Source: a virus (lineage: Duplodnaviria; Caudoviricetes). Taken from it: DNA of 25,561 bases. The translations under genes and the position numbers were made by a program. Of this stretch, positions 149 to 21,881 are shown one piece after another. The DNA lies in the IMG/VR virus record IMGVR_UViG_3300035157_000272, positions 1 to 25,561 of that record; one strand, given 5' to 3'. The first letter of the stretch is position 1; every line of letters starts with the position of its first letter. The notes under the pieces were generated by a model. That model searched no databases, was not told the DNA's origin, and saw only the letters and a program-made list of their open reading frames with translations.

Positions 149-156
149 TATAAATA
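149..156 (+). promoter_or_regulatory. T4-type late promoter TATAAATA
   Basis: exact gp55 consensus upstream of ORF 248. Confidence 0.75.
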
Positions 157-2042: not shown

Positions 2043-3498
2043 GAAGAATGAAGTTTATTTAAAAGTTGAAGCGGAGCCTCATCTCCATAAGGAGGCAGCA
2101 GAATTTTTTACCTTTGAAATCCCCTCTGCAAAATACATGCAAAGAACGAGGAGATACAAAGGTTGGGACGGTAAGGTACGGTTATACTCACCTGCTACTG
2201 GAGAGATTTATTGCGGTTTAGTAGATTATCTAACTGACTGGGCAAAGGAAAGGGGATATCATTATCAGTTCGAGGAATCTCAATACTTTGGGCATCCCAA
2301 GGATCAGAATGATCTAATAACTCCTGAGTCTGTAGTTGGATTTGTTCAAGCACTGGGTCTTCCTTCTGGATTGAAGGTTCGGGACTACCAATACGCAGCA
2401 ATATACGAGTGCCTACGATACAACAGAGCACTCCTATTGTCGCCAACTGCAAGCGGGAAAAGCCTAATGATTTATTCATTGGTTCGGTTTCATGTAAATG
2501 TTAAACGGAAAATTTTAATCGTTGTTCCTACCACCTCTTTGGTGGAGCAGATGTATAAAGACTTTGAAGAATATGGTTGGATGGCATCCAAACACTGCCA
2601 CAAAATATACTCTGGGGAGGAAAAAAATTCTGAAGCTGATTGCGTAATTACCACTTGGCAATCTGTTTATAAGCAACCTCGTAAGTGGTTTTCTAGGTTT
2701 GACGTAGTGATCGGTGACGAGGCTCACCTTTTCAAAGCCAAATCTCTTACTACGATTATGCATAAGTTGCATGGTTGTAAATATCGCTATGGATTTACTG
2801 GCACATTAGATGGTGCAAATGTTAATCAACTAGTGTTAGAAGGTGTATTTGGTAGGTGTTCCAAAGTTACTAAGACACACGAGCTAATGAAACAAGGACA
2901 TGTTGCTAAGTTAAAAGTTAAAGTAATTGTTCTTAAACATAAGGAAAAAATATTTGAAGGGTATCAAGATGAGATGTTTTATCTCATTGAGCATGAACCT
3001 AGGAATAAATTTATCCGCAATTTAGCGTGTGATCTTAAAGGTAATACACTAATCCTCTTTAACTATGTAGAGAAGCACGGAATCCCTTTATATGAAATGA
3101 TAAATAGTTACACTGACAGACCAGTGCATTTAGTTTATGGAGGCGTTGATACTGATGATCGTGAAGAAATTAGGAGACTAGTTGAACATGAAGACAACAG
3201 TATTATTGTCGCTAGCTACGGCACTTTCAGCACTGGTATTAATATCAAGCGGTTGCACAACTTGGTCTTCGCTAGTCCATCGAAATCTAGAGTGCGTAAC
3301 CTCCAGTCTATCGGGAGGGTACTTCGACAGTCTAAGGATAAGGTGAAGGCAACTTTATATGATATTGCTGATGATATTTCTACAGATAAGGGTAATAACT
3401 ACACTCTTAATCATCTGATGGAAAGACTCAAAATCTATAATGAAGAACAATTTAATTATGAAATCATAGAAGTAAAAGTAAAATCACATGACACTTAA
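2023..3498 (+). CDS. uvsW: UvsW SF2 DNA helicase
   Basis: RDYQ, SPTASGKS, DEAH, TGT, QSIGRVLR motifs. Confidence 0.95.
   Translation: MDLLIRKKNEVYLKVEAEPHLHKEAAEFFTFEIPSAKYMQRTRRYKGWDGKVRLYSPATGEIYCGLVDYLTDWAKERGYHYQFEESQYFGHPKDQNDLITPESVVGFVQALGLPSGLKVRDYQYAAIYECLRYNRALLLSPTASGKSLMIYSLVRFHVNVKRKILIVVPTTSLVEQMYKDFEEYGWMASKHCHKIYSGEEKNSEADCVITTWQSVYKQPRKWFSRFDVVIGDEAHLFKAKSLTTIMHKLHGCKYRYGFTGTLDGANVNQLVLEGVFGRCSKVTKTHELMKQGHVAKLKVKVIVLKHKEKIFEGYQDEMFYLIEHEPRNKFIRNLACDLKGNTLILFNYVEKHGIPLYEMINSYTDRPVHLVYGGVDTDDREEIRRLVEHEDNSIIVASYGTFSTGINIKRLHNLVFASPSKSRVRNLQSIGRVLRQSKDKVKATLYDIADDISTDKGNNYTLNHLMERLKIYNEEQFNYEIIEVKVKSHDT
2195..2479 (-). CDS. putative antisense-nested single-TM protein (94 aa) inside uvsW
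   Basis: N-terminal hydrophobic segment LATIGVLCCIVGTRILL then acidic/Pro tail; rare codons (CGG, GGG, TCG, CCC) in the overlapped uvsW stretch. Confidence 0.35.
   Translation of the reverse strand: MNKSLGFSRLQLATIGVLCCIVGTRILLRIGSPEPSIQKEDPVLEQIQLQTQELLDHSDPWDAQSIEIPRTDNDIPFPLPSQLDNLLNRNKSLQ
3099..3106 (+). promoter_or_regulatory. internal late promoter GATAAATA within uvsW
   Basis: NATAAATA consensus about 80 nt upstream of nested ORF 3188. Confidence 0.5.
3188..3346 (+). CDS. putative nested lipoprotein (52 aa), +1 frame of uvsW (not in ORF track)
   Basis: MKTTVLLSLATALSALVLISSG/CTTWSSLVHRNLECVTSSLSGGYFDSLRIR; SD AGGAG 3172-3176; upstream late promoter; local codon shift. Confidence 0.6.
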   Translation: MKTTVLLSLATALSALVLISSGCTTWSSLVHRNLECVTSSLSGGYFDSLRIR

Positions 3499-3937
3499 CT
3501 ACGCAAAACATGATGAAGAATTTTATGGACTTTTTAAGCTAGTTAGTGGAGAAGAGCTCATTGCTAAGGCAATAATTTCTAAACAAGAAGATCTTGAACC
3601 AGTTGAAGAATTGATCTTTTTAAGTAATCCTGTAACAGTTGAATTTTTTACTAAAGAGTTAGACGGAGGTAAAATTGCTAAAGGAATGGGGTTATCAAAT
3701 TGGATGCAAATGAGCGACGAGGATTTTTTTATTATTAAAGAGAAAGATCTTATATCATTAGCATCATTGTCCAAACAATATATTATCATGTATGAAGCAT
3801 ATTTGGCTGGTACTCCACCTGAACAATTATCACAAAAGCAAAGAATTAATCTAGAAAAAAGTATGGGTTATCTAGGATCTATTAATGAAGCTAGAATGTT
3901 ATTTGAAAAAATATATAATAACCCTTCCCAACCCTGA
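3488..3937 (+). CDS. conserved hypothetical protein upstream of g55 (possibly Sm-like fold)
   Basis: KLVSGEELIA N-terminal motif, MGYLGSI near C-terminus; coupled to uvsW. Confidence 0.8.
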   Translation: MTLNYAKHDEEFYGLFKLVSGEELIAKAIISKQEDLEPVEELIFLSNPVTVEFFTKELDGGKIAKGMGLSNWMQMSDEDFFIIKEKDLISLASLSKQYIIMYEAYLAGTPPEQLSQKQRINLEKSMGYLGSINEARMLFEKIYNNPSQP

Positions 3938-3945
3938 CAGTGTTG

Positions 3946-3974
3946 AGTCTACATCGAATGTCCATTGTTGTCAA
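3946..3974 (-). promoter_or_regulatory. antisense sigma70-type promoter TTGACA-N17-TAGACT
   Basis: minus strand -35 at 3974-3969 and -10 at 3951-3946. Confidence 0.55.
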
Positions 3975-3996
3975 GTCCCATTATATGTGTTATAAT
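3968..3996 (+). promoter_or_regulatory. sigma70-type promoter for g55, TTGTCA-N17-TATAAT
   Basis: -35 at 3968-3973, TG-extended -10 at 3991-3996. Confidence 0.75.
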
Positions 3997-20030: not shown

Positions 20031-20495
20031 ATGGCTGAAGAAGAAGTGAAAGAGGAGATAACTGAAGAGGTAGAAGAAAAAAAGAAAGGTGTCTTTGGTA
20101 AAGTCAAAGATGCTATACTACCAGACCCTGAAGAGCAGGCAGCAATCATCTCCACAATGGTCAGAATTACTGTCCTTGCCTGGAGCGGTGGAATATTGAC
20201 TTTGAACTACGTTTCTATACCAGGTATACCACAACAGAAAATTGATCCCACATTTATAGCTTCGGTGTTCACTGGGGTTTTAGCTAGCTTCGGAATTCAG
20301 ACAGCTTCTAAGAAGGGTGATGGTACAATGAAGATGAATGGTAATGGTAGTAGTAATGGTGGACCTCCTCCTGTTACTGCTAAGGATATTGAGGCGATCA
20401 TTGCTAAGAGTGCATCTGCTGGTCCTACTCAAACAATTAGAATTGAGCAAGCACCACTCAAGATCACTACTGACGACAAACCTTACAAATTATAG
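20031..20495 (+). CDS. 2-TM membrane protein
   Basis: VRITVLAWSGGILTLNY, IDPTFIASVFTGVLASFG. Confidence 0.85.
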   Translation: MAEEEVKEEITEEVEEKKKGVFGKVKDAILPDPEEQAAIISTMVRITVLAWSGGILTLNYVSIPGIPQQKIDPTFIASVFTGVLASFGIQTASKKGDGTMKMNGNGSSNGGPPPVTAKDIEAIIAKSASAGPTQTIRIEQAPLKITTDDKPYKL

Positions 20496-20499
20496 AGTC

Positions 20500-20763
20500 A
20501 TGAAATTTAATTTTAATGCAATTGCAAATGCTATTAGTATCGCATCAGGAGTAACACTCGCTGGTATCATAGGTGTAGGAACATACGTCTATGTAAACAA
20601 AGATGCCATTATTGAAGACATCAAGAAGGATGCAATAGAATCCATTGGTGGTGCTGCTTTAGGTGGTCTTGCTGGTGGTGCTCTTACAGGAGATGTAGGT
20701 ACAAATCCACCTTCTGCTGCACCTCAAGCTAGTTTAGGTCTTCCTGTTCCTGGCGGATTCTAA
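20500..20763 (+). CDS. membrane-anchored Gly-rich protein (87 aa)
   Basis: start moved to ATG 20500; TM ISIASGVTLAGIIGVGTYVYV; GGAALGGLAGGA. Confidence 0.8.
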   Translation: MKFNFNAIANAISIASGVTLAGIIGVGTYVYVNKDAIIEDIKKDAIESIGGAALGGLAGGALTGDVGTNPPSAAPQASLGLPVPGGF

Positions 20764-21020: not shown

Positions 21021-21304
21021 GCGTACCTAATGGTTACACAGAGGAAATGATCAAGGAAATGCTTGGTACTTCTATGCCTGATCCTCCAGGTGAATCTGGT
21101 AATGTAATGAGAAGGAGGAAGGGACAAGAGATGAGGGATGGTAAGAGACCATTTCCTGTATATAAAACAAAGAAGACTGGTCCTAACTTTGATGAGGATG
21201 GAAAATATATCTATCCTGAAGGATCTGGATTTAAATATACAGAATTTTTGAAAGATAATCCCAATTCAACAGAAGCAAGTTCATATGGAAATAAAGTATC
21301 ATGA
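21017..21304 (+). CDS. hypothetical hydrophilic protein
   Basis: ATGA-coupled at both ends. Confidence 0.75.
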   Translation: MSVPNGYTEEMIKEMLGTSMPDPPGESGNVMRRRKGQEMRDGKRPFPVYKTKKTGPNFDEDGKYIYPEGSGFKYTEFLKDNPNSTEASSYGNKVS

Positions 21305-21591
21305 TTGATAACACACAACTTTCTGCTTACCACGAGAAGCAATCAACACAAGATAGCGAGATTGCTGTTCTTAAATCACGTATTGATTCTATTGAAAAGG
21401 ATTTAGATGAGTTTAAGAATAAAGATAAGGAAGAATTAGATCAGAGACTGCGTAGTATAGAGAAGCAAGTCTGGGGTGCTGGTGCAGTTATTGCAGTTCT
21501 AGTTTTTGGTATTGGTATTGTTACTCAGATGGAAAGTGATGATGACTGGGATGATGAAGCAAGAATTGAACACGTAATCTATAGAGCATAA
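21301..21591 (+). CDS. coiled-coil protein with C-terminal TM (paralog A)
   Basis: QDSEIAVL...RLRSIEKQVWGAGAV. Confidence 0.85.
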   Translation: MIDNTQLSAYHEKQSTQDSEIAVLKSRIDSIEKDLDEFKNKDKEELDQRLRSIEKQVWGAGAVIAVLVFGIGIVTQMESDDDWDDEARIEHVIYRA

Positions 21592-21881
21592 TGACTGATA
21601 TTACTAACAAAGACTCAGAGCAAGACGTAAAGATTGCTGTCCTTGATAGTACTCTAGAGAATGCTACTCGTAGAATGGAATTGATTCATAAGAGAATTGA
21701 TAGGACAGACGAGAGAATCACCAAACTAAATGAAGATGTAAGAGAAAGGATCAGAGCACTTGAGAAATGGGTTTGGGGTGCAGGTGCTGTACTCACTGCC
21801 TTCATTGTGATAGGTGGTATTGTAGGGGATTTAGATATCCTTCCTGATGGTGAGGTGATAGAGAATGCATCCTATACCTGA
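21591..21881 (+). CDS. coiled-coil protein with C-terminal TM (paralog B)
   Basis: QDVKIAVL...RIRALEKWVWGAGAV. Confidence 0.85.
   Translation: MTDITNKDSEQDVKIAVLDSTLENATRRMELIHKRIDRTDERITKLNEDVRERIRALEKWVWGAGAVLTAFIVIGGIVGDLDILPDGEVIENASYT

Follow-up and report, generated by a model that had tools for sequence, protein, structure and literature searches.

The stretch of DNA analysed here, a 25.6-kb fragment referred to below as the window, derives from a P-SSM7-like, T4-type cyanophage, and its uvsW gene encodes a helicase with 86% identity to the UvsW protein of Prochlorococcus phage P-SSM7. The gene has a 2OG oxygenase gene and an Sm-like gene as neighbours (Table 1), and its 3' part is overlain by a small open reading frame (ORF) in the +1 frame, which covers the C-terminal helicase motifs of UvsW (V-VI). 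GC3 over the region of the nested ORF was 0.57-0.60, compared with about 0.34 for uvsW as a whole. The annotation of P-SSM7 records only uvsW at this site. Elsewhere in the window, the ORF called at 20338-20763 has 158 nt in common with the membrane-protein gene before it, in a very hydrophobic frame (20031-20763), and its true start is probably later than called.

Table 1. Features in and around the uvsW gene of the window (positions are those of the window)
Feature	Position	Strand	Remarks
Upstream late promoter, TATAAATA	149..156	+	5' of the run gp3-like, uvsY, 2OG-oxygenase, uvsW
uvsW helicase, 491 aa	2023..3498	+	Frame 0; host gene of the overprint; PHROG 16; Pfam UvsW_N/ResIII/Helicase_C
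Internal T4-type late promoter motif, NATAAATA	3099..3106	+	Common to carriers and non-carriers
Block common to the window and L003	3153..3329	+	177 bases, one mismatch (3193); Shine-Dalgarno motif and nearly the whole nested gene
Shine-Dalgarno motif, AGGAG	3172..3176	+	11 nt 5' of the ATG, 5 nt 5' of an in-frame TTG (3182)
Nested +1 ORF, 52 aa, predicted prolipoprotein	3188..3346	+	Open frame and stop conserved in carriers
Predicted Sec/SPII signal	3188..3253	+	Basic N-region and hydrophobic core; Ser-Ser-Gly at lipobox positions -3 to -1
Predicted mature lipopeptide	3254..3343	+	Cys+1, then a proximal tether rich in S/T(/P); distal half variable
Sm-like gene, annotated 'methylamine utilization'	3488..3937	+	PF16243; next on the internal late transcript

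The nested ORF runs from an ATG at 3188 to a TGA at 3344-3346, and its product consists of a 22-residue signal, with Lys at position 2, followed by a 30-residue mature part that starts at Cys23 (Gly codon 3251-3253, Cys codon 3254-3256). Of the features of a Sec/SPII signal, Met, a basic N-region, an uncharged hydrophobic core and Cys within residues 15-35 were present. A sequence-only reading of this DNA had pointed out the late promoter motif, the AGGAG, the ATG, the Gly-Cys pair, the stop and, within a mature part of 30 residues, another Cys, and all of these were found in place. The same reading had held that the Gly-Cys pair depends on a rare uvsW codon, CGG, and this was borne out by codon counts across 17 genes of the window, in which CGG makes up 9 of the 236 Arg codons.

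Homologous uvsW loci were gathered from IMG/VR by one protein scan and by two DNA patterns that were neutral to codon choice. Gly-Cys or Ala-Cys was encoded at the lipobox position in 3 of 119 loci of a broad T4-like sample, and among 148 distinct alleles with the helicase residues Arg-Leu-His, 46 used CGG/AGG with TTG/CTG (Gly-Cys) and four used CGC (Ala-Cys). A pooled set was then composed of 135 carrier alleles, chosen for Gly/Ala-Cys and including that of cultured P-SSM7, and 217 others; eight rows of distant lineages (L303, L322, L347, L356, L401, L403, L419 and L432) were left out of it. The number of metagenome stretches matching the carrier pattern is estimated at about 340.

Across these alleles the signal and the proximal tether were recurrent features. 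The signal of the window fits a PROSITE PS00013-type pattern, as do those of 36 of 50 alleles, and K or R was present among the first seven residues in 44 of the 50 and absent from six. The canonical lipobox [LVI][ASTVI][GAS]C was matched by 27 of the 50 alleles, P-SSM7 (LSGC) included, but not by the SSGC of the window, which fails at -3; that Ser at this position fits only a relaxed lipobox had been anticipated, and Ser is indeed the minority residue (15/135 carriers, compared with Leu in 120/135). Non-canonical -3 residues are described as tolerated by Synechocystis and cyanobacterial Lgt (PMC8038367). The mature part ranged from 19 to 31 aa, with the C-terminus shortened to 19-23 aa in 28/135 carriers, and the share of S/T/P at its residues 2-12 was 0.73 in carriers versus 0.24 in non-carriers. 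The +2 residue was Thr or Ile, never Asp. Pro was common, alleles of the Pro-free window type making up 3/135, and the second Cys, present in the window as the sequence-only reading had reported, recurred in only 6/135 carriers and is thus not a general property. The aligned C-termini were polar or charged, with no C-terminal transmembrane segment of the kind found in the unimolecular spanin T1 gp11. No family match to the nested protein was found in PHROG (window allele only), Pfam (none above cut-off) or PDB. Word-indexed database searches returned 6 and 30 matches, and the 16 of these that were examined were the same nested frame or its shadow, none being a stand-alone homologue. One database protein of 89 aa (P0015) fuses the lipoprotein frame to a UvsW-like C-terminus, probably through a frameshift or assembly error.

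The rule used to define a lipoprotein ORF was composed after the ORF had already been seen, and the following figures should be read in that light: 1 of 5000 synonymous recodings of the window uvsW gave any nested lipoprotein-like ORF, and by the same rule 0.015 nested matches were expected over 20 window genes. When a near-identical rule was applied to the P-SSM7 genome in all six frames, in four stretches, the nested ORF was the sole match; the rule missed the PstS of P-SSM7, so its sensitivity is incomplete. The only other rule match in the window was the phage PstS (25172-25561), which starts with a lipoprotein-type signal (VPGC). The nested, lipoprotein-like ORF in uvsW is real and beyond chance.

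Several aspects of the carrier alleles point to the +1 protein as the object of selection. In the pooled set the +1 frame was open in 132/135 carriers and 81/217 others, and over 40 codons it was open in all 46 Gly-Cys alleles, compared with 41/97 and 40/120 others. An A at the third base of the hydrophobic-core codons would yield a stop, or a charged or polar residue, when read in +1. On allele trees of 50 carriers, from which L303 was omitted as a distant lineage, 56 third-base changes were counted in the core and A was involved in three of them, whereas the same codons in non-carriers gave 156/316 and 224/451 A-involving events (about 49%), and the carriers' own sequences gave 31/74 in the distal mature part and 67/88 past the stop. 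The binomial probability of this avoidance was 7e-13, or 5e-5 with the events divided by three, although both values overstate independence because the alleles are related by descent and recombination. Constraint was concentrated on the signal, the Cys and the proximal tether: the first 11 residues past the Cys were about as constrained as the signal, and the distal half (74 events in 330 cells) was nearly as variable as the DNA past the stop (88 in 349).

A similar result was obtained with an independent metagenome set of 120 loci (103 distinct with the full region, 92 of them new), gathered with a pattern that fixed the lipobox and several core codons. At two core Gly codons the 92 new alleles used GGT, GGC and GGG, and GGA, which would place Glu in the +1 frame, was never seen (0/92); at two later Gly codons in the mature part of the same alleles, GGA occurred 23 and 45 times. 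The +1 frame was open in 87/92 and an ATG within range was missing in 4/92. Furthermore, the TTG/CTG, CGG/AGG and CGC variants all preserve Gly/Ala-Cys. GGAG or GAGG preceded the +1 ATG (Cys at position 19-26) in 92/131 carriers and 23/146 non-carriers, and the motif was made from different uvsW codons in different clades; a strong Shine-Dalgarno motif was missing in about one third of alleles, and the gap of 11 nt between motif and ATG in the window is long, many carriers having 10-11 nt. Where a terminal stop could be formed, it was present in 126/128 carriers compared with 55/83 others. The conservation of ORF, Met, lipobox and stop in uvsW homologues, proposed earlier as a check, was thus seen across the carrier alleles, together with that of the Shine-Dalgarno motif and the hydrophobic core. 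No RNA folding signal was detected on either strand (mean z +0.23 and -0.67 in carriers, -0.33 and -0.57 in non-carriers). Two other candidates were rejected: an antisense or +2 gene, as the other frames were not kept (antisense open in 70/135), and a product of ribosomal frameshifting, as a conserved slippery site was lacking and many carriers have stops immediately 5' of the ATG. Judged from these codon patterns, the nested ORF is an overprinted +1 gene under selection to encode a predicted lipoprotein, and it is very likely that a translated lipoprotein is made. It belongs to a real, widespread and previously unannotated overprinted gene family, the function of which we infer below. No description of a lipoprotein ORF overlapping uvsW was found in open-access full text.

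The claim that the lipoprotein has a late promoter of its own was not supported. The motif itself is present, reading GATAAATA at 3099-3106 in the window, and NATAAATA is given as the cyanophage late consensus (PMC2984593). Its ATA-AAT-A codons were kept in 109/110 carriers and 115/120 non-carriers in which the site could be aligned, against an overall ATA share of 29% among Ile codons, and the motif occurred in 15/15 named cyanophage records. The internal late promoter motif is therefore under selection, but it is not specific to the lipoprotein, and since it is equally present in non-carriers it probably predates the nested gene. Codon choice thus holds this motif in almost every cyanophage uvsW, whether or not the nested gene is also there, and its older role is not described in the literature examined. 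The internal promoter probably serves the downstream Sm-like gene, and the promoter upstream of the gene run is predicted to provide a second late route to the ORF. No sigma-70 promoter was found inside the ORF on the + strand; a strong one of this type (11/12, extended -10) lies at 3968-3996, 5' of gp55. At the site where late transcription is predicted to start (3111-3126), a hairpin of five pairs showed paired changes in P-SSM7, L003, L012 and L030 and was broken in many other alleles, and neither it nor an upstream +1 mini-ORF was conserved; both were rejected as features.

The distribution of the nested gene is patchy. It was found in 4 of 15 named cyanophage records, namely P-SSM7 and the single-cell viruses AG-345-O18, AG-345-F15 and AG-345-P14, of which AG-345-F15 lacks an ATG at the usual site. 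It is missing from P-SSM2, P-SSM4, P-RSM4, P-TIM68, S-SM2, Syn9, SynMITS9220M01 and four single-cell viruses. The gene is thus absent from most cultured cyanophages and must be regarded as accessory, and its presence in only four of the named records means that it is dispensable for lysis in general. In trees built from the N-terminal 340 UvsW residues, carriers appeared in at least six places; a tree of 53 chosen rows required nine state changes, and monophyly of its 19 carriers was rejected (p-AU 0.0004). Two of the eight distant rows omitted from the pooled set have a stop three residues past the Cys, which counts against universality. In a more distant UvsW lineage (GRGLRK type, bearing an insertion), an Ala-Cys lipobox lies at about position 575 in L356, 245-275 in L401 and 275 in L419, with the same TTSS linker and longer tails; this is possibly a separate acquisition outside cyanophages.

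Exchange between lineages was evident at the locus itself. Outside the shared block (Table 1), the window and L003 have 68% of synonymous uvsW codons in common. Between the window and its nearest relative, L001, 81% of synonymous codons were alike outside the block and 51% inside. Strongly discordant pairs at the block numbered 29/465 among carriers and 1/2556 among non-carriers. These discordant pairs, together with a near-identical block in otherwise diverged uvsW genes, indicate that the nested gene moves as a block, and comparison of these alleles identifies 3153-3329 as a recent exchange between lineages. Repeated loss may also contribute to the patchy distribution.

The machinery expected to receive the product was surveyed in 31 genomes from the genus of a Prochlorococcus single-cell genome (G001), the host genus being taken from P-SSM7; it may be a different GTDB genus. 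Lgt was present in 31/31 and LspA in 28/31 genomes, and neither LolA nor LolA-like proteins were found (0/31 each); OMPLA (PF02253), too, was not detected in any of the 31. Cyanobacteria belong to the diderm Terrabacteria. For this group, a review reports a lack of the Lol pathway and of outer-membrane lipoproteins (PMC11784454). Since Lgt and LspA were found and LolA was not, the peptide would carry a lipid but would probably not arrive at the outer membrane; the cytoplasmic or the thylakoid membrane is its probable location, cyanobacterial SPII lipoproteins being reported to reach the thylakoid lumen as well (PMC5033237, PMC8038367). Rz1-like and Llp-like roles, both of which need an outer-membrane lipoprotein, are undercut.

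Taken together, the reading that we favour, tentatively and at somewhat less than an even chance, is that the nested gene product is an accessory lysis lipopeptide, made late, lipidated and held in the membrane; granted that the gene is real, a lysis role comes close to an even chance. This reading draws on the late promoters, the constraint on an anchor and not on a binding domain, and the likeness in size and features to colicin lysis proteins, for which ESM Atlas feature values of 0.91 (L017 allele) and 0.88 (window allele) serve as leads only. The gene probably arose de novo, as T-ending helicase codons default to hydrophobic +1 residues, and birth in the leader of a pre-existing late transcript would be the simplest history. 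Expression would then occur late, from the older internal promoter; lipidation would be carried out by host Lgt and LspA, and the peptide would be anchored either at the outer surface of the cytoplasmic membrane or on the lumen side of the thylakoids. Its activity would depend mainly on the signal peptide, the lipid anchor and the proximal S/T/P tether, as in colicin lysis proteins, and membranes would weaken as it accumulates, with no i-spanin pairing. In E. coli, colicin lysis proteins work together with OMPLA. That it was found in none of the 31 Prochlorococcus genomes speaks against a lysis role, and a specificity function, exclusion for instance, would be just as compatible with the swapping of alleles and the variability of the tail. 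In a bolder version, which we consider doubtful, a de novo, horizontally swapped lipopeptide, anchored in the thylakoid lumen or the periplasm and working with neither Lol nor i-spanin, would use its short Pro/Ser tether to bridge closely apposed membranes and fuse or rupture them, and so overcome a barrier peculiar to cyanobacteria; if true, this would be the first spanin-replacing lysis protein in spanin-less T4-like cyanophages, lying inside a helicase core. At 21301-21881 the window encodes, in tandem, two coiled-coil proteins of 96 aa with a hydrophobic segment at the C-terminus (DUF7201, weakly similar to XhlA), which are possible holin-like or type I membrane lysis partners.

The nested ORF bears on how T4-like cyanophages pass through the host envelope. 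Spanins are reported as absent in cyanophages (PMC12596118), and a survey in which large genomes were not searched in all frames places P-SSM7, along with 19 further Prochlorococcus/Synechococcus phages, among those that are spanin-less (PMC6139136). As the nested ORF is the sole rule match in six frames of cultured P-SSM7, which has a cultured host, the lysis question is directly testable. The locus also provides a clear case of gene birth by overprinting of the most conserved helicase motifs, 3' of an existing promoter, and it follows that 'synonymous' sites in uvsW, a core phage gene, are not neutral.

A rather unlikely alternative is that the lipoprotein acts at the cytoplasmic membrane to keep out phages that superinfect or compete, in the manner of Ltp of Streptococcus phage TP-J34. 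Nine state changes, rejected monophyly, distinct allele types and block exchange would all fit a specificity gene, and the T4 r genes are reported missing in cyanophages (PMC2984593). Such a role is countered by the late character of both predicted promoters and by the lack of a folded repeat domain past the spacer, where the distal half varies nearly as freely as post-stop DNA.

Less credible still is a target in the thylakoid lumen or in lipoprotein maturation, with the peptide perturbing Psb27, CyanoP, CyanoQ or Ycf48, or competing for Lgt, LspA or phosphatidylglycerol. The reported arrival of SPII lipoproteins in the lumen, the psbA and hli genes of P-SSM7 and the fact that the processing signals are under the strongest constraint are consistent with it; no sequence likeness to any photosystem lipoprotein was seen, however, and late timing would be odd for a modulator of photosynthesis.

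It is quite improbable that no protein is made and that the DNA or RNA itself is constrained, for example by recoding that evades a homing endonuclease directed at uvsW, with a lipoprotein-like frame hitchhiking on a recombining allele. In its favour, T-rich codons read in +1 give hydrophobic residues by default, 146/217 non-carriers have the ATG, the nested region of uvsW recombines, and in the two distant alleles mentioned above Gly-Cys is followed so closely by a stop. On the other hand, the avoidance of GGA while GGT, GGC and GGG swap freely, the invariant Thr codons, the change at the Cys from codons ending in T to codons ending in C, the Shine-Dalgarno motifs built from different codons and the kept stop all follow the +1 protein, a folding signal is absent and other frames are not kept. 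No homing endonuclease was seen downstream of carrier uvsW, where the Sm-like gene, which encodes no nuclease, follows directly in 43 of 44 loci with enough flank.

The sequence-only proposals of an Rz1/o-spanin-like protein (here with a distant i-spanin) or a T5 Llp-like blocker of the phage's own receptor must be considered highly improbable, since embedding in +1, a linker leading into a Pro-rich run in common alleles, the occurrence of LNGC among o-spanin lipoboxes (PMC6139136), a +2 Thr or Ile and never Asp, and an Atlas match to Rz1 (0.89, a lead only) are outweighed by the failure to find LolA or LolA-like proteins in any of the 31 genomes, the reported lack of a Lol pathway in diderm Terrabacteria, a host gene that is a helicase and not an i-spanin, a short and variable S/T/P-rich tail that can be truncated, has no Pro in the window and seldom has a second Cys, the absence of a PF06085 match and the absence of a conserved domain from the mature part.

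Among known systems, lambda Rz1 and other embedded o-spanins resemble the nested gene in being small lipoprotein genes that lie wholly inside the +1 frame of another gene and were missed by annotation (PMC6139136), and the common nested alleles share with Rz1 a linker followed by a Pro-rich run. Known embedded +1 lipoprotein genes of this kind are reported always to lie within their own i-spanin gene (PMC6139136). The nested gene, in contrast, sits in the catalytic motifs of a helicase with no lysis cassette, its product needs neither a Pro-rich run nor a second Cys, and the host genus has no detectable LolA. Colicin lysis proteins (PF02402) are prolipoproteins of about 50 aa with a mature part of about 30 aa. 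Together with bacteriocin release proteins they are similar to the nested protein in size and are its nearest named Atlas family by features; unlike them, the nested gene is phage-borne and overprinted, its host genus has no OMPLA in the genomes surveyed, and none of 40 alleles matched PF02402 at E<=1.

Ltp of TP-J34 is described as having a lipid anchor, a Ser-rich spacer and an acidic active part, located at the outer face of the cytoplasmic membrane (PMC3952083). The nested protein is likewise a predicted phage lipoprotein with a Ser-rich spacer, and its predicted location is similar. In Ltp, however, there is a folded repeat domain, and expression is from a prophage, whereas the nested protein has a 30-aa tail, gave no repeat domain and no Pfam match, and comes from a phage that is lytic and has late promoters. 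T5 Llp and Cor are folded, reach the outer membrane by Lol and are encoded near a receptor-binding gene. They too are small phage lipoproteins, but neither the outer-membrane location nor the folded domain (the nested protein was judged unfolded by composition) nor the link to a receptor gene was found here. The lysis proteins of phiX174 (E) and of single-gene-lysis ssRNA phages are de novo membrane peptides overprinted on essential genes. As in those cases, overprinting at uvsW exploits the hydrophobic bias of shifted frames; unlike E, the nested gene encodes a lipobox peptide, resides in a large dsDNA myovirus and has spread across clades by recombination.
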